From: Patescibacteria group bacterium
GTDB lineage: Bacteria; Patescibacteriota; Minisyncoccia; Moranbacterales; UBA1568
Direction of reading: 5' to 3'
Assembly: GCA_030916545.1 (NCBI GenBank)
Contig: JAUPWI010000003.1
Span: 1-34,185 of the forward strand
DNA length: 34,185 nt
Shown here one piece after another: positions 124 through 30,187 of this stretch. Each line of letters opens with the position of its first letter. Within the stretch, counting starts at the first letter, position 1. The position numbers and the translations under genes are program-made. Under the pieces are notes generated by a model. That model was given only the letters and a program-made list of their open reading frames with translations, made no database searches and was not told the origin of the DNA.

Positions 124-208
124 GAATGGGAGAAGAAACTTCTCTTTTTTCTTGCGACGTGTTCGGAAACACCAGCATCAAAAAAAGAGAAGTTTCCTCT
201 CACATTCT
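124..208 (+). repeat. Long hairpin repeat A (apex variant 1a, forward)
   Basis: Arms 124-151 and 181-208 pair at about 26/28 positions. Apex 152-180 is CTTGCGACGTGTTCGGAAACACCAGCATC, flanked by T6 and A6 runs. Confidence 0.85.
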
Positions 209-245
209 TTTTGCAGAAAGACAGGTGTGATTTTTCAGTGGTATC

Positions 246-265
246 GACAGCGGTTCAACCGCTAC
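246..265. repeat. 20-nt mini-hairpin repeat, copy 2
   Basis: Identical to 79-98. Lies 53 nt upstream of hairpin repeat B. Confidence 0.6.
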
Positions 266-317
266 TGACCCCTATTGGAATAGGCTTTGAGCTTTGGTAT
301 GGAGCTTTGTGGAATCG

Positions 318-393
318 GGAGGGTGGCTTTGGCTTTTTTCCGATGCTGGTGTTTCCGAACACGTCGCAAGGAAAAAAGTCAAAACCACCCTCC
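318..393 (-). repeat. Long hairpin repeat B (apex variant 1a, reverse)
   Basis: Apex 342-370 (GATGCTGGTGTTTCCGAACACGTCGCAAG) is the exact reverse complement of the A apex. Arms GGAGGGTGGCTTTGGCTTTTTTCC and GGAAAAAAGTCAAAACCACCCTCC pair with 2 mismatches. A T-run follows at 395-400. Confidence 0.85.
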
Positions 394-450
394 TCTTTTT
401 TGTTGAGATGATGAGGGCTCTTTTTTGGACCGATATGGGTAGCAGGAGCT

Positions 451-1380
451 TCACAAAGGGATGCTCATAGTTTCTTTGGGATCTGATATCCAGGTGAGGG
501 TCGTTCCTTGGCGTTCCCAGCGGCGAAGCCAGGAGAGTTGCCGACGGGCGTAGTGCCAGATGGCGTGCTCGAGTTCGATCCGCATGGTCTCTTGATCAAT
601 GGAACTTTGGAGCAATTGCGCGATGAAGCGATACTCGAGGCCGAAGCTCTCGAGGCGTTCCCAATCGATACCTTGTCCGTGAAGCCCCTCGACTTCCTCA
701 ATCATGCCGGATGCGAATCGGTTGAGAAGCCGTATTCTGATGCGTTCGCGGAGGACGTCTTTTGGAGGATTGAGGACGAGAATCGTGGAATGGTTTTCAG
801 CGGTTGATGGCTCGTGTTGAGTAACCGAAGGGACTGTGCCGAGAGCGGCGACGATTTCGAGAGCGCGGATGAGGCGGATCGGATTTTTCTGGTCGATAGT
901 TGCGGCCCTGGTCGGATCCTGTGCTTCGAGCAGTGTGTAGAGCTCATCGGCGGTCTTGGTGCTGAGGTGGTCTCGAAGGACCGGATCGGGCGGAACAGCC
1001 GGGAAACTCGTTCCTTCGAGAAGTGCTTGGATCCAAAAATGTGTGCCGCCGCAGATGAGAGGCTGTTTGCCACGAGCGCGGATATCAGTGATCACACGAT
1101 TGGCATCACGGAGGAAATCTGAGATATTGTACGCTTCGTTCGGGTCGGCGATATCGATGAGGTGGTGGCGGATGCCGCCGGAGATATATTCATCATCTGC
1201 CACCGATTCCGAATCCCGGAGCACCTTACCAGTGCCGATATCCATGCCGCTGTACACCTGGCGGCTATCGGCCGAGATGATTTCGCCATCCAGCCGATGC
1301 GCGAGTTCGATGGCCAGATCCGATTTGCCCGAGGCGGTCGGTCCGGCGATGACGATCAGTTTGTGAGGGGGTAATTCCAT
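451..1380 (-). CDS. miaA: tRNA dimethylallyltransferase (MiaA)
   Basis: 309-aa ORF. N-terminal P-loop IVIAGPTASGKS followed by ISADSRQVYSGMDIGTGK, typical of IPP transferases. Confidence 0.9.
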   Translation of the reverse strand: MELPPHKLIVIAGPTASGKSDLAIELAHRLDGEIISADSRQVYSGMDIGTGKVLRDSESVADDEYISGGIRHHLIDIADPNEAYNISDFLRDANRVITDIRARGKQPLICGGTHFWIQALLEGTSFPAVPPDPVLRDHLSTKTADELYTLLEAQDPTRAATIDQKNPIRLIRALEIVAALGTVPSVTQHEPSTAENHSTILVLNPPKDVLRERIRIRLLNRFASGMIEEVEGLHGQGIDWERLESFGLEYRFIAQLLQSSIDQETMRIELEHAIWHYARRQLSWLRRWERQGTTLTWISDPKETMSIPL

Positions 1381-1428
1381 AGTTGATTGAATGAAAACGA
1401 TTGCTCAGTATCAAGTGTTCGATGAGTG

Positions 1429-1506
1429 AGGATGTGGTAAGGTATTCTTTCCCGATGCTGGTGTTTCTGAACACGTCGCAAGGGAAAGAATACCTTACCA
1501 CATCCT
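1429..1506 (-). repeat. Long hairpin repeat C (apex variant 1b, reverse)
   Basis: Perfect 24-bp arms AGGATGTGGTAAGGTATTCTTTCC / GGAAAGAATACCTTACCACATCCT. Apex 1454-1482 is GATGCTGGTGTTTCTGAACACGTCGCAAG. Confidence 0.9.
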
Positions 1507-1579
1507 GAAGCTTATATGAAGAGAGTACTCTGTATCGGGAGTAATATGATTTTTTAGGAATGTGTTGTTGGTTGAAGCT

Positions 1580-1655
1580 GGAAGGATAATTGCTCTTTTT
1601 TCCTTGCGACGTGTTCAGAAACACCAGCATCGGAAAAAAGAGCAATTATCCCTCC
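1580..1655 (+). repeat. Long hairpin repeat D (apex variant 1b, forward)
   Basis: Arms GGAAGGATAATTGCTCTTTTTTCC / GGAAAAAAGAGCAATTATCCCTCC pair at 23/24. Apex 1603-1631 is CTTGCGACGTGTTCAGAAACACCAGCATC. Confidence 0.9.
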
Positions 1656-1744
1656 TTCACGTTTCGGACACCTATCGTATCCCATAGTATCGTGCAGCAA
1701 TGCGCTGTTTTTGATACAGAATGTTCCTTCTAGTTGCTTTTTTG

Positions 1745-1799
1745 GCGCCTCGTATTTTTCTGAACACGTTGTAAGGGAAAGGATACTTTACCACATCCT
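1745..1799 (-). repeat. Truncated hairpin repeat E (paralog of C, left arm lost)
   Basis: The right half aligns to C (…TTCTGAACACGTTGTAAGGGAAAGGATACTTTACCACATCCT). No complementary left arm is present. Confidence 0.7.
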
Positions 1800-1900
1800 G
1801 AAGTGAACATAAAGAGCGCTCTTTACTGATGCATCAGGTCAGTAAAAGGAATATGATTTTTTCAGAAATGCTTTTCCTATGAGATTTGAGATAGATACTA

Positions 1901-1976
1901 AGGGAGTGAGGCTCCTCTTTTTTCTTGCGACGTGTTCAGAAACACCAGCATCAAAAAAAGAGAAGTCTCACTCCCT
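1901..1976 (+). repeat. Long hairpin repeat F (apex variant 1b, forward)
   Basis: Apex 1924-1952 is identical to the D apex. Arms AGGGAGTGAGGCTCCTCTTTTTT / AAAAAAAGAGAAGTCTCACTCCCT pair with about 3 mismatches. Confidence 0.85.
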
Positions 1977-2044
1977 CCATACTTGAGAAACCTTCTGTCT
2001 TAAAGTGTACGAATGATGGAGTGTAGAAATATATTCCTGATGAA

Positions 2045-2125
2045 GCGGAAGGCACTCTCTTGCTTTTTCTGATGCCCCGTATTTCCGAATACGCAGCAAG
2101 GAAAAAGGAAGAGAGAACCTTCCGC
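2045..2125 (-). repeat. Long hairpin repeat G (apex variant 2, reverse)
   Basis: Apex 2071-2100 is GATGCCCCGTATTTCCGAATACGCAGCAAG. Arms GCGGAAGGCACTCTCTTGCTTTTTC / GAAAAAGGAAGAGAGAACCTTCCGC. Lies 35 nt beyond the dnaE stop codon. Confidence 0.85.
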
Positions 2126-2159: not shown

Positions 2160-5100
2160 TTATCCGACTGATTCGACACCCTGGAGCGCACGTATCTGTT
2201 CGAGGGTCGCTTCTTCAGGATCTATGTAGAAGGGTGTATCGATGGTCGTGCCGTGTATCTTGACGAGGACTTTCGTTTCCCCTTTCGGAACGGTTCGAAG
2301 AAAAGCCGAGAGTTCACTGATTAATTTTGCATCTGTTTGTTCCTGAAGGGTAATCAGAAGTTTTGGAGTCGAGGTAGCATTTTCGTCCATTTGAGTCTTC
2401 TCTGAAGCAGATTTTTCACGGGTGATGCGTACGCGTTCGAATTGCGTCAGGGTATCGAGAGAGAGACGTTCAGCGCTTTCGGCAATGCAACGGAGTTGAC
2501 CATCCTTGTGTGAAACTCGGGCATCAATAAGTACGATATCATCTTCTTTCCAGAAACCATCGGTCTGCTCGGCCGTTTTGCCGAAGACGAGGACTTCAGT
2601 CCGACCAGTGAGATCCTCGAGACCGATGAAAAACATCGGATGACCGTTTTTGGTGATCATACGTCTGACTGATGTGACGATACCGCCGATACGGACCCGA
2701 CTTTCGTTTTCTTGTTTTTCTATGTCGATGAGAGCCGTGGTGGTTTCTTTCAAGTAATGACGGTAATCGGAGGCTGGATGTCCAGTAACATAGAGTCCGA
2801 GGAGTTCCTTTTCCCAGGTAAGACGTTGTTGTTTGGAGGCTGGGATAGCTCGTGCGAGATTGATTTTTGTCTTGGGAAGTGGCATAGAGCCAAAAAGACT
2901 GTCGGTATGTGTCTCGGCAAGAGTAGAGGATTGTTTTCCGTAGCGTATGATGGCGTCGATGCTCTCAAGAATTTGTTCGCGTTCACCCAGGGTGTCAAGT
3001 GCTCCAACCTTCGTCAGCGCTTCGACTGATTTTTTGTTAAGATCCTTGGTCTGGACGCGTTCGACGAAGTCTTCGAGACTTTTGAATTTCCCGCCACGCT
3101 TCCGTTCCTTGACGATCTCTTCCGCACAGACCGAACCGACATTCTTGATCGCCTGAAGACCGAACCGGATGCGCTCGATATCGTCGTCTCCCTGGATGAC
3201 CGCGAAGCTCTCGAAGCTTTCATTGATATCTGGTTGTAGAACATCAAGGCCGATTTCGCGTGCTTCTCGTACTTCGATAGCGATGCGGTCGGTATCGTTC
3301 TGATCGCTTGTCAGGAGCGCGGCCATGAATTCGGCTGGATAGTGGGCCTTGAGATAGGCGGTCTGATAACCGATCATCGCGTAGCAAGCGGCGTGAGATC
3401 GGTTGAAACCATAGCCAGCAAACGGTTCGATGAAGGCGAAGACCTGTTCGGCGACGTGTTTGGTGATGCCGTGCTTGACGCAGCCCTCGATGAATTTGAT
3501 GCGTTGTTCGGCGACGAGTTCTTTGATTTTCTTTCCGACGGCTTTGCGGAGCACATCGGCTTCGCCGAGCGAGAAACCGGCAAGGTCGCGGGCGATCTGC
3601 ATAAGCTGTTCCTGATAGACGGCGACGCCGTAGGTGTTCTTCAGAATCGGTTCGAGTTTCGGGTGGAGATATTCGATTTGTTTGGTGCCGTGCTTGCCGC
3701 CGATGAAATCGGGGATGTATTCCATTGGTCCTGGGCGGTAGAGTGCGACCATGGCGATGATATCCTCAAAGACCGTTGGCTTGAGCTGTTTCAGGTAGCG
3801 CTTCATGCCGGTCGATTCGAGCTGGAAGACGCCGGTCGTCCGGGCTTCCTGGAGCACCCGATAGGCCCCCTCATCATCGATCGGCAGCTTGTCCATCACA
3901 TCGGAAACGGAGGCGGTATCCGGGTCGAGCCCGAGCTCATGCGCCAGCGCTTCGAATTTGCCGAGCGCGCGGACGATGCGAAGGGTGTTTTGGATGATGG
4001 TGAGGTTTTTGAGACCGAGAAAATCCATCTTGAGGAGACCGATCTTTTCGACGGCATTATTCTTGGTCGAAGCGGCATACTGGGTGACGACGCCTTCGCG
4101 TGAACCGGAAATCCGTTGAAGGGGGGTGTATTCGGTGACCGGGTCCTTGGTGATGACGACGCCGCAGGCATGCATCGAGGCATGACGGGCCAGCCCTTCG
4201 ATCTTCTGGGCATTGTCGACGAGGCGGCGGACTTCGGCATTGCCTTCGTAATGCGTCTTGAATTCCGGAACTTCCTCCAGCGCCTTCCTGATGGAAGTAA
4301 ACATCGGGATCATTTTGGCGGTCTGGTCGCAAAGAGACAGTGGTATGCCGAGCGCGCGACCGACATCGCGGATCGCACCGCGGGCGGCCATGGTTCCGAA
4401 GGTGATGATTTGTGCGACGTGGTCGGCCCCGAAACGTTCGCGGACGTAGTTTAGGACGTCTTCGCGATGATCATCGGCGAAGTCCATGTCGACATCGGGC
4501 ATGGAGATACGTTCTGGATTGAGGAAGCGTTCAAAGAGGAGATCGTATTGGATTGGGTCGAGGTTGGTAATGCCAGTCAGATAGGCGACGAAGGAACCGG
4601 CGGCCGAACCGCGGCCTGGACCAACAACGACGCCGTTGTCTTTCGCCCAGTTGACGAAGTCCTGGACGATGAGGAAGTATGATGCAAAGCCAGTCTTTCC
4701 GATGATATCGAGCTCGTAGTTGAGGCGAGTGAGCTGTTCTTCCGTCGTCGGAGCATCGCCGAAACGTTCTTTGAGTCCCATTTCGCAGAGCTGGCGCAAA
4801 TAGCCATCGGGGGTGACGCCTTCCGGAAGCGGATACACAGGTAGGTGATTGACCCCGAAGGTGAAGGAGAAATGACAGGCATCGACGATTTTTTGGGTAT
4901 TCTCGATAGCATCCGGAAAGTCTTTAAAAATCTCAATCATCTCTTCGGAGCTCTTGAGTGAGAGGTCAAGCGACATCATAGAGAATCGGTCACGGTCCTC
5001 AACACGTTTGTTATCCCGGATGCAGAGGAGTGTGTCTTGGATACTGGCGTCTTCGCGGCGGACATAGTGCACGTCATTCGCAGCGACGAGAGGAATATTC

Positions 5101-5690
5101 GTCTCCCGTGAAAGCGCGATGAGGCCTTGGTTGACCGCCGCCTGTGTCTCGTGATCGAAATGCGGCTGGATTTCAAGGTAGAAGTTACCCGCTCCAAAAA
5201 TATCCTGGTATTCGAGAGCAGCGAGTTTGGCGCGATCATAGTCACCATAGATGAGCTCGGAAGGCACTTCTCCTTGAAGCGATCCGGACAAGGCGATGAG
5301 TCCCTCGCTGTATTGTCGGAGGAGTGCTTTGTCGGTTCGGGCTTTGTAGTAGAAACCGTCGAGCTGTGCGATGGAAATGATCTTGAGGAGATTTTTATAG
5401 CCGGTCTCGTTTTTGACGAGGAGCACGATAGTGTGCCGACGGCGGTCTTCGGCCGTATTGTTCTTACTGTGAAGATCGTGACAGACGTACATCTCGGCTC
5501 CGATGATTGCCTTGATTCCGTAATCCTTGGCTTTGGTATAAAACTCAACCGCTCCGTACAGAGCCGAGGTATCGGTCAGGGCGAGCGAAGTCTGCCCGAG
5601 TTCTTTGGCGCGTGCTAAAAGTTCTTCTGGCCGGCCGAGTGCGGTCAAAAGAGTGTAATGCGAGTGGACATGGAGGTGGGTGAAGTTCAT
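2160..5690 (-). CDS. dnaE: DNA polymerase III alpha subunit (DnaE)
   Basis: 1176-aa ORF. N-terminal PHP motif FTHLHVHSHYTLL, a Pol IIIalpha core (…MPDVDMDF…), and a C-terminal OB-fold region. Confidence 0.95.
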   Translation of the reverse strand: MNFTHLHVHSHYTLLTALGRPEELLARAKELGQTSLALTDTSALYGAVEFYTKAKDYGIKAIIGAEMYVCHDLHSKNNTAEDRRRHTIVLLVKNETGYKNLLKIISIAQLDGFYYKARTDKALLRQYSEGLIALSGSLQGEVPSELIYGDYDRAKLAALEYQDIFGAGNFYLEIQPHFDHETQAAVNQGLIALSRETNIPLVAANDVHYVRREDASIQDTLLCIRDNKRVEDRDRFSMMSLDLSLKSSEEMIEIFKDFPDAIENTQKIVDACHFSFTFGVNHLPVYPLPEGVTPDGYLRQLCEMGLKERFGDAPTTEEQLTRLNYELDIIGKTGFASYFLIVQDFVNWAKDNGVVVGPGRGSAAGSFVAYLTGITNLDPIQYDLLFERFLNPERISMPDVDMDFADDHREDVLNYVRERFGADHVAQIITFGTMAARGAIRDVGRALGIPLSLCDQTAKMIPMFTSIRKALEEVPEFKTHYEGNAEVRRLVDNAQKIEGLARHASMHACGVVITKDPVTEYTPLQRISGSREGVVTQYAASTKNNAVEKIGLLKMDFLGLKNLTIIQNTLRIVRALGKFEALAHELGLDPDTASVSDVMDKLPIDDEGAYRVLQEARTTGVFQLESTGMKRYLKQLKPTVFEDIIAMVALYRPGPMEYIPDFIGGKHGTKQIEYLHPKLEPILKNTYGVAVYQEQLMQIARDLAGFSLGEADVLRKAVGKKIKELVAEQRIKFIEGCVKHGITKHVAEQVFAFIEPFAGYGFNRSHAACYAMIGYQTAYLKAHYPAEFMAALLTSDQNDTDRIAIEVREAREIGLDVLQPDINESFESFAVIQGDDDIERIRFGLQAIKNVGSVCAEEIVKERKRGGKFKSLEDFVERVQTKDLNKKSVEALTKVGALDTLGEREQILESIDAIIRYGKQSSTLAETHTDSLFGSMPLPKTKINLARAIPASKQQRLTWEKELLGLYVTGHPASDYRHYLKETTTALIDIEKQENESRVRIGGIVTSVRRMITKNGHPMFFIGLEDLTGRTEVLVFGKTAEQTDGFWKEDDIVLIDARVSHKDGQLRCIAESAERLSLDTLTQFERVRITREKSASEKTQMDENATSTPKLLITLQEQTDAKLISELSAFLRTVPKGETKVLVKIHGTTIDTPFYIDPEEATLEQIRALQGVESVG

Positions 5691-5785
5691 GTAATGGGAG
5701 ATACTGGATTCTTGATTTTTGAATTTTTCTCAGGTTGAGTATCGAATATCAGAGTTTATTCGGTTTTGTGTCTAAAGGCCGAAAG

Positions 5786-5822
5786 GGGCTTTTTCTTTGC
5801 TGCGTATTGGTGAGGCACCGAC
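5786..5822 (+). repeat. Decayed hairpin-repeat remnant H1 (variant 2 apex with deletions)
   Basis: CTTTTTCTTTGCTGCGTATTGGTGAGGCACCGA aligns to the H3 apex but with indels. No 3' arm is present. Confidence 0.55.
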
Positions 5823-5855
5823 AATCTGATTGTGTCTTGAGAAGATTCAAAACAA

Positions 5856-5892
5856 CTTTTTCTGATGCTCCTGTATTCGATGACGCGAAGGA
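5856..5892 (-). repeat. Decayed hairpin-repeat remnant H2 (variant 2 apex, reverse)
   Basis: CTTTTTCTGATGCTCCTGTATTCGATGACGCGAAGGA aligns to the G apex, but the apical helix is disrupted. Confidence 0.55.
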
Positions 5893-5912
5893 TATCGGAA
5901 ATTCATTTTTAC

Positions 5913-5995
5913 TTTCGAAGAGTAGAAGTGACTTTTTCCTTGCTGCGTATTCGGAAATACGGGGCATCAGAAAAAGTCACTTCTACTCTTCGAAA
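5913..5995 (+). repeat. Long hairpin repeat H3 (apex variant 2, forward)
   Basis: Perfect 25-bp arms TTTCGAAGAGTAGAAGTGACTTTTT / AAAAAGTCACTTCTACTCTTCGAAA. Apex 5939-5968 (CTTGCTGCGTATTCGGAAATACGGGGCATC) is the exact reverse complement of the G apex. Confidence 0.9.
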
Positions 5996-6148
5996 CATTT
6001 TTTCAACAAAAAATCGCACCAAAATGGAGCGAAAGAGAATTCGAAACTGGGTATTCGAGGTTGGACATGATGATGGTTTCTCTCAGCGCCCGGATCGCTC
6101 CATGGGGTTTGCAGAGAAGCTTAGGATAAGCCCAGTATATCATTTTTT

Positions 6149-6193
6149 GAAAAAAAAGAAACCCCTGGCAGCGATGTTGCTGACTGCCAGGGG
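6149..6193 (-). terminator. Intrinsic terminator (minus strand)
   Basis: 10-bp GC-rich stem CCCCTGGCAG (6162-6171) / CTGCCAGGGG (6184-6193). On the minus strand it is followed by TTTCTTTTTTTT. Confidence 0.7.
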
Positions 6194-6456
6194 TGGGTAC
6201 TGCGAGAATACTACTAGAGAGTACTACTCTTCCCGAAACGCGCACTGGCGTCTGGGGGGGGGTGCTACGGGCGGGTGTTGCCATACTGCGTTTGGGTGCC
6301 GCCTCAGATATGATGGAGTGTCCCGGCACGGACTTCTCCAAAAAAACCTAATCGCTCTAAAAGGTATTACACTTTCTTGCGCCCGTTCCGTCCTTCGAGA
6401 CGTTCGGGGTGTTACGCCGTTTTGCGCCGCATCGCCAACTGAGTGAGCTTGACGAG
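6149..6456 (-). ncRNA. Candidate ~300-nt structured non-coding RNA of unknown class
   Basis: A GC-rich, hairpin-dense island in a 940-bp gene-free spacer. Minus-strand extended -10 TGGTATAAA (6462-6470) lies upstream and the terminator at 6149-6193 downstream. Local hairpins include GGAGAAGUCC…GGACACUCC and CCGAACGUC…GACGGAACGG. ORFs through the region look like nonsense. Confidence 0.35.
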
Positions 6457-10578: not shown

Positions 10579-10914
10579 TTAATGGAGATGTTTCGTTATT
10601 TCCGTCACGATCCCGGAGAGATTCTCGTCAATATCGTTGTTCCAGAACCGCAGGACTGTGTAGTCGAAACCGGAGAAGTATTCTGATCGGGCCTTGTCGC
10701 GTCCACCGTTGTCTCTTCGCTTCCAGCCGTCGATATCGATGATGAGTTTCTTTTCGACGCAGCAGAAATCGACCATATAAGGGCCATGGGTATGCTGACG
10801 AACAAAACGGCACCCGAGAGCCTGATTTTTGAGCCGAGACCAGAGCCTGTTCTCTTGAGGCGTGGAACGCTTGGCTCGCGCGCGTCGGGTATTTTTTTGC
10901 GTGGAGGTAATCAT
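10579..10914 (-). CDS. DUF559 (Vsr-like endonuclease fold) domain protein
   Basis: 111 aa. Contains the pattern …ENRLWSRLKN…GCRFVRQHTHGPYMVDFCCVEKKLIIDIDG… characteristic of DUF559. The stop lies 10 nt upstream of the flippase start. Confidence 0.7.
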   Translation of the reverse strand: MITSTQKNTRRARAKRSTPQENRLWSRLKNQALGCRFVRQHTHGPYMVDFCCVEKKLIIDIDGWKRRDNGGRDKARSEYFSGFDYTVLRFWNNDIDENLSGIVTEITKHLH

Positions 10915-10964: not shown

Positions 10965-11597
10965 TTATTTCTCCCGGAGTATGGTGAGTAGGGAATCGAA
11001 GACGAGCTCTTTCGGACGATCAGCGGCGAGCACGTGCATATTCCAGGAGCTTACTTTCGCTCGGAAGAGGGATTGTTTCGCGTGTAGGTATTCGATGCCT
11101 TGTTCGGGTGTGCGTTCCCGGGACAGGATGATTTGCGGGTCGAGATCGAAATAGAAGGCGATATCCGGTTTCGGCAGAGAGGATTCAAGAAGATCGGCGC
11201 GGGTGCGCCACCCGAGGAAGCGTAACGCATTCTGGTGCGGGAGGGCGAGGTATTCCAGATGGATGAGACTGTCGAAGAAGGAACGGTCGGAGAGGAGATA
11301 GTCGTACTCTTCACGTTCCAGTCGGGCAAGGAATCGTCGGAAGCGGAAGAGATCAAGGAAGAGAAGTTTTTGGCGGAGAAGAAGCGTGAGAAGAGATGTT
11401 TCGGTGACAGCTTTCTCCTGACCGGGCTGGAAGTTTTTGGTGCCTTTGAACCGGCGGGCGATCCGATTGGCGAAAGAGAATTCGACTGCGTGAAAATAGG
11501 CGACCTTATGACCTTCGCTGATGAGGTGTTCTTTCAGAAGTTCGAGCTGGGTGGACTTGCCGCTCCCATCCACGCCGGAAAAGGTGATGTATCGCAT
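10965..11597 (-). CDS. Thymidylate-kinase-like P-loop kinase (divergent)
   Basis: 210 aa. Has P-loop FSGVDGSGKST and a DRS/F motif (LLSDRSFFDS), but lacks the canonical TREPGGT segment of true Tmk. Confidence 0.55.
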   Translation of the reverse strand: MRYITFSGVDGSGKSTQLELLKEHLISEGHKVAYFHAVEFSFANRIARRFKGTKNFQPGQEKAVTETSLLTLLLRQKLLFLDLFRFRRFLARLEREEYDYLLSDRSFFDSLIHLEYLALPHQNALRFLGWRTRADLLESSLPKPDIAFYFDLDPQIILSRERTPEQGIEYLHAKQSLFRAKVSSWNMHVLAADRPKELVFDSLLTILREK

Positions 11598-11692
11598 AGA
11601 CTGAGAGTATCAAAAAGTGCTATTCTCGGCAATGAGAGGCGATTTTTCGGTCATGAGACAGGATATCGAGAGGCGAAGATGAACTTTTGCAT

Positions 11693-13117
11693 ATGAAAAG
11701 CTTCAATATTTATTTGTTTTTGGTGTATCTTTTTCTGCTACCGTTACAAACGGTGTATTTGTTGCGTGAGCCGATGATTAGTGGGGAGAAGTGGCAGTAT
11801 GGGACTATTGGCATTTATGCTACGGATATTTTGCTGATTCTGATACTTGGATGGTATGGCGTGAGTCGATGGAAGAAGCAGGGTAATATTGAGGGACGAA
11901 GACGTTGGTTGGCGCGTTTGGCTGGAGCGCGAAAACAGCTTTTTCTGATGCCCTTTGCTTCCGAGCAAACAGCAAGGAAAAAGTTCGTTTTTGTGCTCCA
12001 GCATGCGCTGAATCCGTGGTCTCTGAAACGAAGTATCTTCTGTATCAGTTTCATTCTTTGGGCCGGCCTCTCGATATTTTGGGCGCCTGATCGGGTGTTG
12101 GCCGGATACTTTTTCGTAAAGCTGCTTTTGGCGGTCGGAGTCTTCTTTCTGATTCGTTCATTCGGCAGGCGGGAAATAGGCCTGATCATAACAGTGCTCT
12201 TCATGGGAGCGGTACTCGTGAGTGTGTTCGGCATCGGGCAATTCTTGCTGCAAGGCGCATTCGCTTCGTCGTGGCTCGGGATGAGTGGACAGGAAGCGTG
12301 GCAAGCCGGGACATCGGTACTCAAGAACGAAGCTGGTCGTTGGCTGCGGGCGTATGGTACGTTTCCGCACCCGAATATGCTCGGGGGGTATCTTAGCGTC
12401 GTCTTGGTCTTGGGAATAGGGTATCTTACGCAATCGGCACTTTCGATTAAGAAACGATTGCTTTTCGAGGGAGGGGGCATTGTCATCCTCCTTGGTCTCG
12501 TCCTCACTTTTTCTCGTACGGCGTGGCTGGGGATTGTACTCGGGATTACCCTGGTGGGATTTCATGCCTGGAGAGAGCGCGAACCCCGGATCCAGAGGCG
12601 GTTTTTGCAAGTCGTTTTCGCGCTCGGATTAGCCGGACTCGTTTTTGGATCCATTTTGCACGAGCAGATTTTTCCGAGATTCGATACTGCGACAATCGGG
12701 CAGGAAGGTTCGGTAGCGGAGCGGGTCGTATCGTTTCAGGACACCTGGACGCTTATCGGGAAGCACCCCTTCATCGGTGTCGGTGTCGGGAATTCCACGG
12801 TACAACTCATGAAAGAAAATCCCGGTCGTCCGATTTGGGGAATCCAGCCGGCACACAATGTCCCTCTCGTCATTTGGTCAGAGCTCGGCCTGATCGGACT
12901 CTTCCTGTGTATCGGATGCACAGCGTCTTTTTTATTTTCGCTTTCGAAATTTGCGATCTTTGACCTTCAGTCTGCGATTTTCATCGCGCTTCTCCCAAGC
13001 CTCTTCTTCGATCACTGGCTCTGGACCTCGCATTCCGGTCTCGTATTTCTTTTCTTGTCGTTCGGACTGATACGAAGCAGGCATGGTGGCGAGGGTATGA
13101 GACCGGATGGTGATTGA
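11693..13117 (+). CDS. O-antigen ligase-like (Wzy_C) membrane protein
   Basis: Polytopic. Has FSRTAWLG and PAHNVPL motifs typical of the O-antigen ligase family. ATG at 11693 (TTG at 11687 is in frame). Carries hairpin repeat I in frame. Confidence 0.75.
   Translation: MKSFNIYLFLVYLFLLPLQTVYLLREPMISGEKWQYGTIGIYATDILLILILGWYGVSRWKKQGNIEGRRRWLARLAGARKQLFLMPFASEQTARKKFVFVLQHALNPWSLKRSIFCISFILWAGLSIFWAPDRVLAGYFFVKLLLAVGVFFLIRSFGRREIGLIITVLFMGAVLVSVFGIGQFLLQGAFASSWLGMSGQEAWQAGTSVLKNEAGRWLRAYGTFPHPNMLGGYLSVVLVLGIGYLTQSALSIKKRLLFEGGGIVILLGLVLTFSRTAWLGIVLGITLVGFHAWREREPRIQRRFLQVVFALGLAGLVFGSILHEQIFPRFDTATIGQEGSVAERVVSFQDTWTLIGKHPFIGVGVGNSTVQLMKENPGRPIWGIQPAHNVPLVIWSELGLIGLFLCIGCTASFLFSLSKFAIFDLQSAIFIALLPSLFFDHWLWTSHSGLVFLFLSFGLIRSRHGGEGMRPDGD
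11921..12002 (-). repeat. Hairpin repeat I (apex variant 3, reverse) inside a coding sequence
   Basis: Apex 11948-11977 is GATGCCCTTTGCTTCCGAGCAAACAGCAAG. Outer arms GCTGGAGC…/…GCTCCAGC pair imperfectly. Translated as …ARKQLFLMPFASEQTARKKFVFV…. Confidence 0.75.
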
Positions 13118-13577: not shown

Positions 13578-13623
13578 AAAAAAAGTCGTCCCGCGCCGAG
13601 CAAGCGGGACGACTCATTTTTTT
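13578..13623. terminator. Bidirectional intrinsic terminator
   Basis: A7-GTCGTCCCGC-(9 nt)-GCGGGACGAC-TCA-T7. Sits between the convergent orphan ORF and rtcB. Confidence 0.8.
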
Positions 13624-17786: not shown

Positions 17787-20700
17787 ATGCGTAAAGACGT
17801 CATGCGTTTTCGAGCGAACGGTCACAAAGAAATACCAAAAGCAAAAAAGTCATTCCTTTCTTTCCAGGAATATTTTTCGGTATTTATCAAGAAAAGAAGG
17901 GGGGAACGGTCGTCCAGTGTGGTACGTTCCCGTTTGAAGGCGCTGTGCCGGACACCTATCGGGCCGCGCTTTTCTGTTCAGGAGAAAGCAGAGCGGGCAC
18001 GTGTGGTCATTGAGGCTGAGAGTCTGGAAGAATTCCTGAAGTCCTATGCTGTTACTTCGAAACATAGTTATGGTACGGCCTACTGGCGTCGGCGATCTTT
18101 CTCGCTTTTGAGTGCCTTTGTTGCAAAGTACGCGGCATTTTTTGGAAAAGTGGCGTGGATGTTTTCGTGGCGGAGTAGTATCGCGGCACTGGTCGCGGTA
18201 TTGGTGGTGTACATCGGAGGGATGAATGTGTCGAGCGCGCCGTATGCTCGTACCATTACCACCAAAGCTGAATGGGGATTGGGAGTGACTGATAATCTCT
18301 CCCTTGACAGCGCGGCTGATTCCCTTCAGTTGGCTGGGGATGGAACCTGGTCGGCACGGACCTGGGCGGTGCCACCCGATACGGTCAGCGCCGGATCAAG
18401 CTCCATTTTTCTCGGGGATAATCTATATGTCGTCCGTGGGCTCTCGGACAAAGCGTTCTGGAAATACGATTCGGCACTCAACGTGTGGTCAGAGCTTTCT
18501 GACCTGCCGTTTCCGGTATACTATGGTGCTGACATGGTGGCTGACAGCGCCAACAATCTTATTTATGTTATCTTTGGTGGTTTTTCGAAAAAGTTCTATT
18601 CATACAATGTGGTGACGGACGCCTGGACGGAGCTCCCGGAACTCCTCGATACGCCTTGGACGGGAGCGAGTATTGGGTTTGATGGGACGAATCCTTTTGT
18701 TCTTCGTGGCAATAGCAGTACTGACTTTTGGAAATACAATGTGGCGCTTGGCGAATGGCAAAACTTGGCGCCGATTTCCGCGACGGTATCTGCGGGAGCC
18801 AGTCTCGTCTACGGGTATGATGGAAATTTTTATACGCCACGCGGTGTCAATACGCTGACGTTTTACCGCTACAATATTGCGAGCAATACCTGGAGTGCTC
18901 GTACGAATATCACTGCGGGGCAGCTCTTTAATGGGAGCCAGAAAGGCGCATATGCTAATGGCTATATCTATTATCCGCGTTCGACAGGAACTACGGGATT
19001 TCTCCGATACGATATCGTGGGAAATAGTTGGACGGTGCTTGCGGCGACACCTGCCGTGACAACTGACACCCCGGTGGCTTTCAATGCCAACGACAATAAA
19101 CTCTACATGCTTCGTTCAGCTGGTACCTATGATTTGTGGAAATTTGATCCGACAATCGGGGCAACAGGGGATTGGGTGGGACCACAGCAGGTCCTCAATA
19201 ATACCGGAACTATCGGGACAGGAGGGGATCTTTTCTGGAACGGAGTGACGGGCGCCGGATCATATGTCTATGCCATGCGCGGAGGAGCGGCGGGGTTTTA
19301 TCGTTACAATGTATCCCTTAATACCTGGACGGCCATGAATAATCCGGCGGTGGCTTCGACTACCGATACGACCGGAACATTGGTAAATGATTATGTCTAC
19401 TATCCGCTGGGCAATAACACCACGACGTTTTATCGCTATACGATCTCTACCAATACCTGGGGAGCGATGACGGTTTTGCCGGGTGCAGCTTCCAATGGAG
19501 CGAGCGCTGTATACAATGCTTCGGATAGTCGAGTGTATGTCCTGCGAGGAAACGGCACCTCGAATCTGTACAGTAGTCCGAATAATCCTGTGCTTGCGTG
19601 GACAACGCAGGCATCGACAGTGGTCAGCGGCGTAACTTATCAAGCGAATGTCGGTGCGAGGATGGTATCAGACGGAACAGACCTTTATGCCACAATGGGC
19701 GATGGTGAGACGGCCTTTCTTAAATACAATACGGCTGGCAATACCTGGTCAGCTCTGAAGCAGACTCCTTTTGCGCAGTACTATGGGACGAGCTTGACCT
19801 ATGCAGGCGGCAAGATTTATGCCTTGGCGGGGTATTATAAGGATGAGACCTGGGAATATACCATTGCAACCGACACCTGGAGGCTGCTGCCATCGAATCA
19901 AAAATATCTCTATGGCCGCGGACCTTACAACGGCGCCACTCTCGAATATGTCGGGGGAAGTTCATTTTATGCTTTGACGGGACAGGCGACGACGGATATG
20001 TGGAGCTATACTGCTGGGATGAATAATTTTGCGAGCTCAGGGAGCTATGTGAGTCAGACTCTCGATGTTTCGCAGGCGTCAACTTGGGTGTCGTTTGTGG
20101 TCAATGATGCTCAGCCAGCCAATACCAGTATCGTCTATGAGACACGAACCAGTACTGATGCGAGCTCATGGTCGAGTTGGGAAGCGGTAGTGGGGACGAC
20201 GATTGCATCCCCGGCGCAACGCTATATTCAGGTGCGAATCACGCTGGCTACGAGCGATGGAGTGAGTACGCCGACCGTTTCGGACTATACGATTACCTAT
20301 AATAATTCCGATACACCTCCGACCAATCCATCGGCCGTCAATGCCTATTCACAGGTTTCCGGCGGAGTTTCACTTTCATCAGGGAATACCTACCTCTATG
20401 AGCATCCTTATTTCACCTTTTCCGGCGCCAGTAGTCCTGAAGCGGGCGTGGAAGGGTATTATGTGTATTTCGGAACGAATGCCAGTGCTGACCCGGCGGT
20501 TGATGGATCCTATCAGACCAGCACGACGTATGAAGTCAACCATGGGCTGAATGCGGGTACCTACTATCTGCGGATCAAGACCAAGGACAACAATGGCAAT
20601 GTGAGTATCGGGACATATGCAGCCTTTACTTACATCTACAATGGCGTTTCACCCGCTCTGGTTGAAACCAAAACAAGCCAGGCAGATTTCTCGGCTGGGA

Positions 20701-23700
20701 CACTCAGCGATGTTTCGGCGGGCGATGTGGCTGATGCGATGCGTCTTTCGGCAAGTAGTGGGACGGGATTTTGGAATCAATCCAGGCTTTCGAATATCTC
20801 CGCGAGCGTCTTCTACGGAGGAGACAGTGTTCAGGTGAATTATGCCGGAACCGATTATATTTTCGTGCTTCGGGGTGGCGCCACGACCGGATTTTATCGG
20901 TACGACATTGCGAATAATACCTGGCTTGTTCGGCAGCCAACCCCAGGCAATGTGAGTTACGGTGGGTCTCTCGAGGCTGGACCTGAGGGGTTTCTCTATG
21001 CGACGCAGGGTGGAGGAGCATCGGCTGTCTTCTGGAAGTATGATATCGCTCTGAATTCTTGGACAGCGGTATCGAGCGCGCCGAAGAATTTCGCAGTTGG
21101 GGGATCGATTACATATGACGGGTCACGCTATATCTATGGTCTTCCGGGGAGTGATGACGCGTTTTATCGGTATGACACGACCACTGATTCTTGGAGTGCC
21201 CGGGCCAATGCTCAGTTCGGCAATCCGAATACGGCCGACGGTCAGACGGTGAATTATGATTCGGATAGCGTCTATGATGGACGTAACAACATCTATGTGA
21301 TACAGGGAAATTACTATCCCTACTTCGCCAAGTATTCCATCGCGACCGATGGGGCTTATGGTGAGACGGCCAATACCTGGACGATACTCGCATCCGCTCC
21401 GACCGGTGTCTATACCGGAGGGAGTCTTGCCTACGATACGACGACGGAGAGCGTCTATATGACACGGGGTAACTGGAAGAATAATTATTACAAATATGAT
21501 GTCGGTTTGAATAGCTGGTCGCAACTCCCTGATACGCCGGCAACCTTTGATCAGGGGGCTTCACAGGTGGTGTATAACGGGTATATCTACGCGCTTCGTG
21601 GGGCCAATCAGACGAATTTTTATCGGTACAATATTGCGGAGAGTTCGTGGGAGATTCCGACCAAGGGACTGTTCGGACCATCGATTCCTGGGGGAACGAC
21701 GTACTTCCCTTTTTCATCGGGAACCAATGTGGTAACGGATGGCGGCGAAAACATGTATATGATTCGCGGAAGCTATGACAACGTGTTTCTTCGTTACAAT
21801 GTGGCGACGGGAACGACGACGGAAATGGCCCGGTTGCCGGTCGGTGCTTGGGACGGGTCCAGTCTTGTCTATGTCGGCAACCACGATGAGATTTATTATT
21901 CTCCAGGGGCCATCCGGACGACGCGGAGCGGAGCGAGTAATTATTTCTATAAATATGATATTCCGACCAATACCTGGAGCGAGGTTACCACTGACCGACC
22001 ACCGCTTCAGGTGGGTACGGGATCGAGCATGACTTATGACGGATCGCGTTACATGTATCTGACGCGCGGAGTAGGGACGGCCACCTGGTGGCGCTACGAC
22101 CTTGATGCCGCGGCTGGTTCGCGCTGGTCGTCGGCTTTGTCAGCTGGTCTTGGTACCACGACGACAGGAGGAAAATTGGTGTATAGCGGCGGGTATGTCT
22201 ATGCGGTGCGTGGTGGCGCGGCGACTATCTATCGGTACGATCCGGTCGCGACGACCTGGGCTACGATACCGGCGCTGCCGGCGTCGATCAGCACGGGCGG
22301 CGGTATCGTCGACGGTGGCGATGGGTATCTCTATGTGACTCGGGGTACTAATACCGCGAATAATTATCGGTATCGTATCGCCGACGGACTCGCGGGGACC
22401 TGGGCGAGCGTGACGGATATCCCGGCGCAGGTCAATACCGGAGGGTTCCAGGAGCATGTAAGCAACCGGAACTGGGTAATAGCCGGTAGCGGCACCAATT
22501 CTTATCCGGATGGAGTGTATAGTTTCGTGGTGAGTTCGACCGGTAATGGCACGGGATTTCAAAAGACGGGAACGTATACTTCGGAAGCGCTGGATCTGGT
22601 CTCGGTGTATAAGTGGGCCAGTTTTTCAGCCAACTACACGCTCCCCGATAATACGTTTGTGGCTTTTGAAACAAGGAGTTCGGATGATGGGCTGGCATGG
22701 GATAATTGGGTGGCGGTTTCAAATGAGCAGGTGTTTGGAACAAACCATGTGTTTAAAATCAACTCCGCTCCCAATGGGTATATCCAAGTGCGAGCCACCT
22801 TGTCTTCGTCAGACAGGATCTTCTCGCCGCTGATCACTGAGTATTCGATCGGTTATTATCAGGATATGACCGAGCCGACCAATCCGAGTGCGGTCAGCGC
22901 TTATACGAGTGCCGCCAAGGCGACAGGCATAGCGACGAACACCTGGTACAATCATGCAGCACCCCATTTCGAGTGGCCGGCGGTTGACGCGGTCGGCGGG
23001 GCGACCGATGGTGTGGGCGGGTCGGGTGTGGCGGGGTATTATGTCTATTTCGGTATCGATAGTAACGCCGATCCGGTGACGTTTCAGACGACCAATACCT
23101 ATACGGCGAGCGGTTTGTCAGCCGGGCAAACGTACTATCTGAAGATCATGACTGAGGACAATGCCGGGATGATCACGGCGAGTTCGTACAGCGCCTTTAC
23201 CTATAAATTCGATAATATCGCTCCGACCAATCCGACCATTATTTCTGTCAATCCAACCGGATATACGGCGGTTGATAATTTTATTTTTACTTGGTCATCC
23301 GATGCTGCCGATTCGTTTTCCGGTATTTCCAAGCTGCAGTATCGGACCGATGGCGATGTGGCTGATACCTGGACCGATATCGCTAACCCTGCTGACATCA
23401 CGGTCACGTTGCCTAACGTGAATCATATTGTAGGTGCGTATCAGTCAGGTAAGAATAAATTTTATCTGCGGGTGGTGGACGGCGCTGGTAATGTGTCGAC
23501 TTCACTTTTGCAAGAGTATTACTACAGTGCGAGTGCTCCGACGCCGCCGCAGAACCTGACTGCCACTCCGGCGACGTCCACAGCCAACTCTTTTTCCTTT
23601 TCCTGGGATTCTCCGGCATCCTTTGCGGGGGACGAAGCCGCTATTGTGTATCATTATTCGGTCAACGTGCTGCCAACAGCCAATAATTCCGTCTCGACTG

Positions 23701-30010: not shown

Positions 30011-30187
30011 AAGAGAGGAAAAAGGGAGAGAAACGTGTGTTGTGTTGTGGGAGACGAGTCGGGAAAGGGTTTTTAAAACCGCCTTCCCGACTCGGTCCTG
30101 GTGGGGATCGTCATCGATGTGAGATCCCTCTCGTCTCCGGTCGCCGATGTTTTGGCGCCCTTTTGCCGCTCTCCTTTGGATTTACTA
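29975..30187 (-). ncRNA. Candidate ~210-nt small RNA with a three-way-junction fold (unknown class)
   Basis: Bounded by a consensus promoter (30194-30221) and a terminator (29975-30010). Outer helix 30050-58/30130-38 (GGAGACGAG/CUCGUCUCC) encloses hairpins 30056-30093 and 30104-30128. A further long-range pairing is AAAGGAGAG/CUCUCCCUUU. A CA-rich unpaired tract is CCACAACACAACACAC. Confidence 0.45.

Follow-up and report, generated by a model that had tools for sequence, protein, structure and literature searches.

What keeps the tip of a hairpin nearly unchanged when the stem that carries it differs from copy to copy? The question is raised by a 34,185-nt stretch of DNA from a Patescibacteria group bacterium of the Moranbacterales (assembly GCA_030916545.1, contig JAUPWI010000003.1, positions 1 to 34,185), called the window below, which carries eight intact hairpins of 76-86 nt each and three decayed ones (E, H1 and H2). 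A preliminary description of the window had reported a conserved apex carried on copy-specific, self-complementary stems. This holds over about 85 copies, and so does the contrast drawn there with miniature inverted-repeat transposable elements (MITEs) and repetitive extragenic palindromic (REP) sequences, the layout of which is the opposite of a conserved apex with free arms. The reading favoured here, to which we give an even chance, is that the hairpins are a lineage-specific interspersed family of the Candidatus Moraniibacteriota clade (Candidate Phyla Radiation, CPR/Patescibacteria), acting as a folded single strand, most likely RNA.

Consensus structure and covariation

The elements are described on the strand reading GATGC..UCCG..GCAAG, the folding strand, which is also the strand given for each hairpin below. 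The consensus is 5'-[purine-rich arm, 17-22 nt]-U5-7-(C)U-GA-UGC-YY-[5-6 bp helix + UCYG loop]-(Y)A-GCA-A-G(G)-A5-7-[arm']-3', and units measure 76-100 nt across the family. The outer stem, 17-22 bp long and variable in sequence, is followed by a conserved U5-7/A5-7 tract. Inside the tract lie a C-G pair (sometimes absent), a U·G pair, a 2×1 internal loop GA/A and a 3-bp helix UGC/GCA. The next internal loop is 2×2 (2×3 in apex variant v1), usually CC/CA, AC/CA or UG/GUC, and leads to an apical helix of 5-6 bp, free in sequence and closed by the tetraloop UCCG or UCUG; a few distant copies have loops of 5-7 nt in its place. The apex is as first described, and the T5-7/A5-7 tracts and the U·G closing pair have to be added to the conserved module. 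The GGAGG/GGAAGG ends formerly assigned to the distal stems are found in about half of the copies and are not a rule, the general feature being a purine-rich 5' arm.

Sixty-six distinct aligned copies were used to build a covariance model, R1. In this alignment 85.1% of the cells hold standard pairs, vs. 64.9% in column shuffles, and registers slid as a control are paired at 46-58%. Both sides have changed at 28 of the 33 pairs, and the covariation score of 0.573 (0.218 in shuffled alignments) was reached in none of 500 shuffles. The apical helix occurs in at least ten complementary forms (GUGUU, GUAUU, CGUAUU, UUUGCU, UACGCU, UAUGCU, UGUGUU, CAUGUU, GCGGC and GUGUUU), which confirms and extends the three compensatory variants recognised at the outset. 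The window hairpins fold as RNA at -38 to -52 kcal/mol; compared with dinucleotide shuffles, this corresponds to z-scores of -5.5 to -12.3.

Known motifs were also compared with the apex, and discarded. On inspection, the registers required by a K-turn or box C/D reading of UGAUGC…GA do not fit the Watson-Crick pairs U-A, G-C and C-G. A CsrA-type GGA loop, and likewise mimicry of a T-loop or anticodon loop, fit only the non-folding strand and are broken by the CAGA variants.

Strand asymmetry of the mismatches

Read in the CTTGC orientation, 38 copies contain 48 A·C or C·A mismatches vs. 10 G·T or T·G mismatches; the 48 become G·U wobbles once the opposite, GATGC strand is read. On the latter strand the 66-copy alignment holds 192 G·U vs. 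67 A·C cells (149 vs. 67 when pair 30-60 is excluded), G·U cells outnumbering A·C cells in 44 copies and the reverse being true in 7. Pair 30-60 is a conserved wobble, U·G in 43 of the 66 copies, C-G in 18 and U-A in 5. Variants of the 3-bp helix (P1) point the same way: with GCGAG and GUGAG as partners the pairs become U·G and G·U, and GAUAC found with GUGAG completes a path from G-C through G·U to A-U. Exactly eight full copies are returned by R1 in the window, all scoring 77-93 bits on the GATGC strand vs. 19-38 bits on the other.

A function exerted by double-stranded DNA or by a cruciform would be blind to the class of mismatch, and the bias therefore implies that the GATGC strand folds while single-stranded. 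Structured RNAs are marked by conserved G·U pairs and by compensation through G·U. From the alignments, the folded molecule is most likely RNA, single-stranded DNA being the alternative.

The alternative can be given a definite form. The hairpins may be single-stranded DNA substrates of a Y1/HUH enzyme, REP-RAYT or IS200/IS605-like, which would be encoded elsewhere, read the irregular apex junction, and mobilise and maintain the copies, the GATGC strand folding during replication or repair. We consider this unlikely, yet strand-specific folding is expected under it as well, and the conserved irregularities are the kind of feature that Y1 transposases read, hairpin irregularities being recognised in IS608 and by RAYT proteins. 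The conserved T·G "mismatch" and the G·U-mediated compensation, however, are typical of RNA.

A hairpin within the Wzy gene

Copy I (11921-12002, +; R1 78.3 bits), of apex variant v3 with helix UUUGCU/AGCAAA, lies inside an open reading frame (ORF) of the O-antigen-ligase family (Wzy_C, 11693-13117). Its 30-nt apex, CTTGCTGTTTGCTCGGAAGCAAAGGGCATC, spans 11947-11976 (-), and translation runs through the hairpin in frame, giving …RLAGARKQLFLMPFASEQTARKKFVFVLQ…. Wzy orthologues have the insertion down to about 51% amino-acid identity, one clade in an altered form; homologues at about 50% identity lack it, and their protein is about 45 residues shorter. Neither arm matches the insertion-free homologues.

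The nucleotide sequences of six orthologues were compared. The apical hairpin UUUGCU-UCCG-AGCAAA is unchanged. Double changes from G-C to A-U in the arms alter amino acids on both sides (AGA…VLQH vs. TGT…TFQY), and the G·U intermediates are on the sense strand. Nucleotide identity is 85-95% in the hairpin vs. 59-82% in the rest of the gene (59-64% between deep pairs). Where the amino acid is the same, the same codon is used in 89-100% of cases in the hairpin vs. 46-73% elsewhere (46-55% in deep pairs). Third-position identity reaches 0.87-0.97 over codons 80-109, and is 0.28-0.66 elsewhere, adjacent codons included. As far as sequence comparison can tell, this is direct evidence of purifying selection acting on copy I at the nucleotide level over a long time.

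In the P0013-15 clade (L148, L124, L125 and a fragment in L001; L numbers denote related loci) the apex points the other way with respect to the gene, between arms that are still homologous and in a frame that is still open. An inverted apex between homologous arms indicates that flipping by recombination between the arms happens.

One of these loci is rearranged at the hairpin. At L001 72-1298 (JAYRFE010000070.1), in the closest NCBI relative, a 5' piece of a flipped-apex Wzy gene, 72 aa long, stops directly at a hairpin; an HD-domain gene and then the full Wzy gene come after it. A duplication or insertion breakpoint at this place suggests that the palindromes are recombination hot spots.

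Hairpins of the window and their gene context

Direct reading of 1-2400, 5680-6120 and 11560-12160 and an inverted-repeat scan both place the hairpins where they had first been reported. The exact 29-mer core of variant v1, CTTGCGACGTGTTCRGAAACACCAGCATC, occurs five times in the window and in none of 100 shuffles. Copy A (123-208, -; arms 123-150/181-208, 28 nt, 93% complementary) and copy B (318-393, +; arms 318-341/370-393, 24 nt, 92%) are located in the interval from an upstream + strand gene to the 3' end of miaA (451-1380, -), B being downstream of miaA; both have apex v1. R1 gives copy A 80.4 bits on the - strand and 31.9 on the +, and copy B 81.2 bits.

The 780-bp gap between miaA and dnaE (2160-5690, -) is occupied by copies C to G, five hairpins. 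Apex v1 is found in copy C (1429-1506, +; arms 1429-1453/1482-1506, 25 nt, 100% complementary, stem 25/25; 77.4 bits), copy D (1580-1655, -; arms 1580-1603/1632-1655, 24 nt, 96%; 78.9 bits) and copy F (1901-1976, -; arms 1901-1923/1954-1976, 23 nt, 91%; 77.5 bits). Copy G (2047-2125, +; 81.8 bits), just downstream of dnaE, has apex v2 with helix CGUAUU/AAUACG. Copy E (about 1737-1800, +) is decayed, the right arm and half of the apex being kept and the left half lost (13.8 bits over model positions 24-66).

Copy H3 (5913-5995, -; arms 5913-5938/5970-5995, 26 nt, 100% complementary, stem 26/26; 92.8 bits) lies in the divergent region upstream of dnaE. It too carries v2, the 30-nt apex CTTGCTGCGTATTCGGAAATACGGGGCATC being found at 5939-5968 (+) in H3 and at 2071-2100 (-) in copy G. 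The same region holds two remnants, H1 (5786-5812, -), read from the sequence as the 5' half of a v2-like core, and H2 (5841-5885, +), a left arm with a decayed apex. Copies E, H1 and H2 are decayed and partial, as had been implied in the preliminary description.

That the elements are unusually long intrinsic terminators, possibly bidirectional, or insulators is quite improbable. Many copies do sit at the 3' ends of genes, copy B is followed by TCTTTTTTG, and palindromes of the type found in JAGOBM01 are flanked by A6 and T6 runs. Yet 7 of 8 window copies, all but B, lack a T-run 3' of the hairpin on either strand; for the JAGOBM subfamily such counts are uninformative, as boundary walking absorbs the paired A/T runs there. 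JAGOBM-type copies would moreover be redundant as terminators, because canonical ones adjoin them. H3 is in a divergent promoter region and I inside an ORF, and a terminator has no need of a conserved apex. An intrinsic terminator has a U-tract directly behind a GC-rich stem, and the ordinary terminators of this genome differ in kind from the elements, being short GC hairpins with A/T runs, as at 13578-13620.

In copies A, F and G, the 5' arm alone folds into a small, terminator-like hairpin followed by a T-run (128-146, +; 187-201, -; 1902-1916, +; 2107-2123, -). As these 5' arms fold on themselves, the elements could take an alternative fold made of three hairpins. The sites of such small hairpins number 12 vs. 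7.2 ± 2.8 in shuffled sequence, and are not clearly in excess.

A second small hairpin, ACAGCGGTTCAACCGCTAC, with a 5-bp stem and a TTCAA loop, flanks copy A on both sides as an exact 19-nt direct repeat (80-98 and 247-265), where none is expected by chance, and is placed just past the stop codon of the upstream + strand gene. L018 and L139, which lack copy A, have the small hairpin twice as well, and L054 has it once. Directly downstream of H3 is a 140-aa ORF (6024-6446, +) with no Pfam match. The region 6000-6260 is 78-87% conserved in L018, L020 and L054; the start of the ORF is uncertain, since the gene called at this site in L143 overlaps the orthologous hairpin.

Arrangement and orientation

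Both orientations occur in the window and in the sister genomes, as first noted. Neighbouring copies alternate: of 23 pairs of adjacent copies with less than 300 nt between them, 19 are oppositely oriented, and the order in the window is A-/B+, C+/D-, E+/F-, G+. Adjacent pairs often combine two apex subtypes, β (ACUACGCU…) and γ (CCGAGAC…, GCUGC/GCGAG). The alternation has a simple explanation in the deletion of copies that share one orientation, of which L139 gives an example (see below). Of the 32 copies that lie between genes of the same direction, 21 are oriented with the folding strand as the sense strand, and so are 7 of the 9 in-ORF cases.

Alternating clusters, often of two subtypes as the Y and Z REPs of bacterial interspersed mosaic elements (BIMEs), and the presence of both orientations relative to genes agree with a Y1/HUH substrate. 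In the same way, the REP/RAYT-like nature suggested in the preliminary description stands as an analogy drawn from the alternating clusters, and fails on identity: the elements are twice the size of REPs, and show no conserved foot tetranucleotide of the GTAG type, the conserved part being the apex. No Y1_Tnp or RAYT gene was found in the window or among the ORFs flanked by copies, and no other transposase, integrase or Nop/Tas gene among window ORFs or beside copies. GC skew is positive along the entire window, the copies of which are split 5 to 4 between the strands; hence orientation is unrelated to the replication strand, in disagreement with a Y1/HUH substrate. An association of the hairpins with an origin or terminus was rejected as well, the skew being positive throughout.

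Occurrence in related genomes

A first scan was carried out with a degenerate apex pattern on one genome per species. It returned mostly chance matches in unrelated taxa, from which genuine copies were told by arm complementarity. Among the matches listed, all genuine copies are in Candidatus Moraniibacteriota or in metagenome-assembled genomes (MAGs) labelled "uncultured Bdellovibrionales". A stricter pattern run on metagenome contigs matched 27, of which 19 are genuine. In viral contigs there were no matches to the specific pattern, and 120 loose matches were all due to chance; a phage origin of the hairpins was rejected on this ground. R1 yields about 80 folding-strand matches in 360 kb of related loci, and none in 21 kb of a more distant Moranbacteria relative (L150, CAZBFG01), in which the Wzy insertion is absent too. 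In all, about 85 non-redundant copies were tallied in related Moraniibacteriota MAGs and metagenome contigs.

Only three tRNAs pass the gathering threshold of Rfam 15, and no hairpin family does. Permissive Rfam searches gave only sub-threshold look-alikes of miRNA precursors, at most 37 bits against thresholds of 72-142 bits. Two of the checks proposed in the preliminary description, a covariance model and a comparison with Rfam, have thus returned further copies in sister genomes and no known family. The literature searched on hairpin repeats of CPR bacteria and Moranbacteria contained nothing relevant.

Eight of the loci are from MAGs named "uncultured Bdellovibrionales bacterium" (L002, L020, L022, L023, L028, L032, L054 and L107), and records with this title include CAYOHD01, CAYMZY01, CAZOKB01 and CAZDRG01. 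These loci are syntenic with the window (miaA-dnaE-rnhB…) at 70-86% nucleotide identity (70-88% for the MAGs with this label in the first scan) and carry the same hairpin family. Because of the synteny and the shared hairpins, the Bdellovibrionales label looks wrong.

Conservation, duplication and recombination

Orthologous copies were monitored over a range of divergence. In L018/L001, about 88% identical to the window, copies B, D, E, F and G are at the same sites, C and A are absent, and the stems differ at few positions, including a double change from G-C to C-G. Copy E is in L018 in the same decayed state as in the window, and about 150 nt are missing there along with copy C. The site of copy A is empty in L018, L139 and L054; copy B has orthologues in L018, L121, L139, L054 and L142. 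L054 is more distant (miaA 70%, dnaE 82%) and has only two hairpins between miaA and dnaE. In the D orthologue of L054 the stem can still be recognised as homologous, its A-U/G-C exchanges being compensatory, and the apex differs only at the R position of the loop; the intergenic DNA around it cannot be aligned. Remnant H2 has an arm matching the intact copies that L054 and L143 carry at this site.

Even where neighbouring genes have only 60-82% identity, the apex of orthologous copies has not changed. Each locus has its own apex variant from genome to genome, which argues that paralogues do not homogenise one another. On this comparative record, single copies are kept long-term at fixed sites, with purifying selection on the apex and on pairing. 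Homologous arms, as expected from the simple decay of one MITE, would have counted against the preliminary description. The arms are indeed homologous between orthologues and some paralogues, but simple decay does not describe the family, in which pairing and apex are actively maintained.

Copies C and E are paralogous, spacers included; a two-hairpin unit of about 321 nt was thus duplicated in tandem as the array grew. The proximal 14 nt of the arms are common to copies A and F, and whole arms to the β copies of JAGOBM01, where many copies have nearly the same arms and a flanking A-run/T-run, and lie beside canonical terminators. Near-identical paralogues reside within one genome (L003 and L097). 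By these homologies the duplicated unit is the whole hairpin, the arms of which then diverge under the constraint of pairing. L139 has a hybrid in which a single apex links the left arm of D with the right arm of F, two arms that do not pair; the hybrid is a deletion by recombination between two directly oriented apexes. Copies are thus seen, in the loci compared, to be gained, lost, flipped and recombined.

The preliminary description had also considered a mobile apex that makes its palindromic arms by fold-back synthesis. On this view about 45 nt alone would be mobile, each insertion forming its arms from the target flank. The arms do look unrelated between most window copies. The hypothesis is, however, extremely improbable and already contradicted: arms are homologous between orthologues and between paralogues, the latter sharing flanking A/T runs as well in one sister genome, the Wzy arms match no insertion-free homologue, and the mismatched arms of the L139 hybrid have been retained unrepaired.

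A further possibility is a selfish palindrome of MITE type, devoid of host function. Its arms would be kept by template switching or gene conversion within quasi-palindromes, and its apex would look conserved only because copies are young. The decayed copies E, H1 and H2, the near-identical paralogues of L003 and L097, insertion and deletion of copies between relatives, apex flips and apex-apex recombination, and the location of copies beside canonical terminators, sites tolerant to insertion, all fit such an element. We nevertheless hold it to be improbable. An apex unchanged next to genes which are 60-82% identical, locus-specific apex variants, and the sharp peak of third-position conservation over the in-ORF copy are not those of young, unconstrained repeats, and arm conversion would yield neither the G·U/A·C bias tied to the apex nor preserved internal loops. 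No terminal inverted repeats shared with a parent insertion sequence and no target-site duplication were seen. Filled and empty sites of copy A reveal no clear duplication, the junctions having diverged, and the A-run/T-run flanks of JAGOBM-type copies are inverted rather than direct. Gain and loss of copies between close relatives are in line with a Y1/HUH substrate as well, but deep conservation in place, synonymous sites of an ORF included, is unexpected for transposase substrates.

Stems were also considered as guides or spacers, and the hypothesis was rejected. Arm 17-mers had no match and 19-mers two in viral contigs, at chance level and without hairpin context. Stems that drift with compensation argue against targets in trans.

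Other features of the window

A 111-aa DUF559 protein with a Vsr-like endonuclease fold (Pfam E = 1.9e-27) is encoded at 10579-10914 (-), between a polysaccharide-export gene and tmk. L144 has the gene in this position and L143 an unrelated 83-aa ORF; the gene behaves as an inserted, possibly selfish gene. No link between the hairpins and DUF559 was shown. A 2526-aa ORF (17787-25367, +), conserved in L145 and L149, features many Kelch repeats and fn3, Big_3 and purple-acid-phosphatase-N-like domains, and is probably a surface protein. A palindrome of 20+20 nt without spacer (CGAGTCGGGAAAGGGTTTTT/AAAACCGCCTTCCCGACTCG, 85% complementary) is found at 30055-30094, close to the 3' end of topA. It scores only 18.6 bits with R1, is not a family member and is probably a terminator.

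Possible function

Among the explanations first put forward, a modular structured RNA or protein docking site fits best, given the strand-specific G·U pairs, the conserved U·G pair, covariation, and synonymous-site conservation in an ORF; the structured single strand is upheld by these data, and the docking site is putative. We infer protein docking, an effect on transcripts, and RNA as the folded molecule. The conserved junction, made up of the U/A tract, the U·G pair, the GA/A internal loop, the UGC/GCA helix and the YY/CA loop, would be the docking site of a trans-acting protein. The long stem, free in sequence, would provide a stable duplex marking transcripts for processing or protection, and the output may be cleavage of the RNase III type or a block to exonucleases. 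Inverted pairs would present a correctly oriented folding strand to transcripts coming from either side. An effect on mRNA comparable to that of REP/BIME, Correia and ERIC elements is likely by analogy.

Some observations weigh against this reading. As E, H1 and H2 have decayed, maintenance does not extend to all copies. The bias of orientation with respect to genes is weak (21 vs. 11). Flipped Wzy copies are still well conserved, which is the chief misfit with a function in the sense mRNA. G·T is also the mildest mismatch in DNA hairpins. Finally, many of the counts include orthologous or recently duplicated copies, which are not phylogenetically independent.

Of the rival explanations, the single-stranded DNA substrate of a Y1/HUH enzyme ranks first, followed by the selfish repeat, the terminator and the fold-back apex. 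The RNA reading may be extended, tentatively and with more doubt than confidence, to an undescribed class of cis-acting RNA signals in CPR bacteria. The apex would be read by a dedicated, clade-specific protein in tens of transcripts, one copy being within a coding sequence, the stem would be free in sequence, and the copies would be set in inverted pairs that serve transcription from both sides, to give a genome-wide post-transcriptional punctuation or processing derived from a domesticated palindromic mobile element. If the apex is a docking site, it points to an RNA-binding or processing factor and to its regulon in an uncultured lineage, and the family would be a clean case of a palindromic repeat that has been domesticated.

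Comparison with known systems

Little is available for comparison in the lineage itself. CPR/Patescibacteria have, to our knowledge, tiny genomes with little non-coding DNA, and almost no described biology of regulatory RNAs or repeats. In genomes this small, a 780-bp intergenic region with five hairpins is conspicuous.

Some systems share single traits with the family. TIGR-Tas systems occur in CPR bacteria, have variable palindromic stems and two 8-12-nt spacers between 2-3-nt box C/D motifs, and form regular arrays beside a Nop-domain Tas gene (PMC12045711). The host, and stems that are variable but palindromic with short conserved motifs, are common to both. Membership was rejected in view of the conserved 29-30-nt interior hairpin, the dispersed copies and the absence of Nop/Tas genes among window ORFs. 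Integron attC sites resemble the hairpins because structure is conserved over sequence, one strand folds, and they lie between genes. In attC sites the base is conserved (R''/R' RYYYAAC/GTTRRRY and L''/L' boxes), the apex is variable, and arrays next to intI have one orientation. Membership was rejected here too, as the stem base is variable, the apex conserved, and no integrase is in the window.

Correia/NEMIS elements of Neisseria and ERIC/IRU elements of Enterobacteria are about 100 nt long, and their arms pair into a long hairpin in transcripts. Correia hairpins are cut by RNase III, and the effect of ERIC on mRNA is orientation-dependent. In both types the copies are near-identical, and are bounded by conserved terminal inverted repeats and by target-site duplications (TA for Correia). 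In the Moranbacteria family, in contrast, no target-site duplication was seen, arms differ, and the apex is structured and conserved. The shared terminal inverted repeats of MITEs are likewise missing, arms being alike only in young subfamilies and no insertion sequence being seen. Rickettsia palindromic elements (RPEs) reside in frame in protein genes, are translated and are kept in orthologues, much as copy I. Yet only 1 of about 11 window copies is in an ORF, and phylum and sequence are unrelated; we know of no report of synonymous-site constraint as a property of RPEs.

The closest likeness is to the RAYT-associated REPs, BIMEs and REPINs of Enterobacteria and Pseudomonas, interspersed extragenic imperfect palindromes which are clustered, alternate in orientation (the pattern of the BIMEs of E. 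coli) and come in two subtypes; their cognate RAYT gene is typically flanked by the repeats. REPs and BIMEs are present in tens or more copies per genome, and are transcribed within mRNAs, where they act as stabilisers or terminators. REPs measure 20-40 nt and have conserved stems, a GTAG-type 5' foot and a variable loop, whereas the Moranbacteria hairpins measure 76-100 nt and have a conserved apex, free stems and no foot, one copy being coding. The family resembles REP/BIME in layout and is not a member of it; as to kind, it ranks with the interspersed palindromic repeats of bacteria. Traits usually found apart, BIME-like alternation, RPE-like residence in frame and the signature of a structured RNA, are here combined. 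Repeat finders based on arms miss families in which the apex is conserved and the arms are free. New with respect to the known palindromic repeats are the inverted layout, the structured-RNA signature, the synonymous-site constraint in a gene, and the CPR host.

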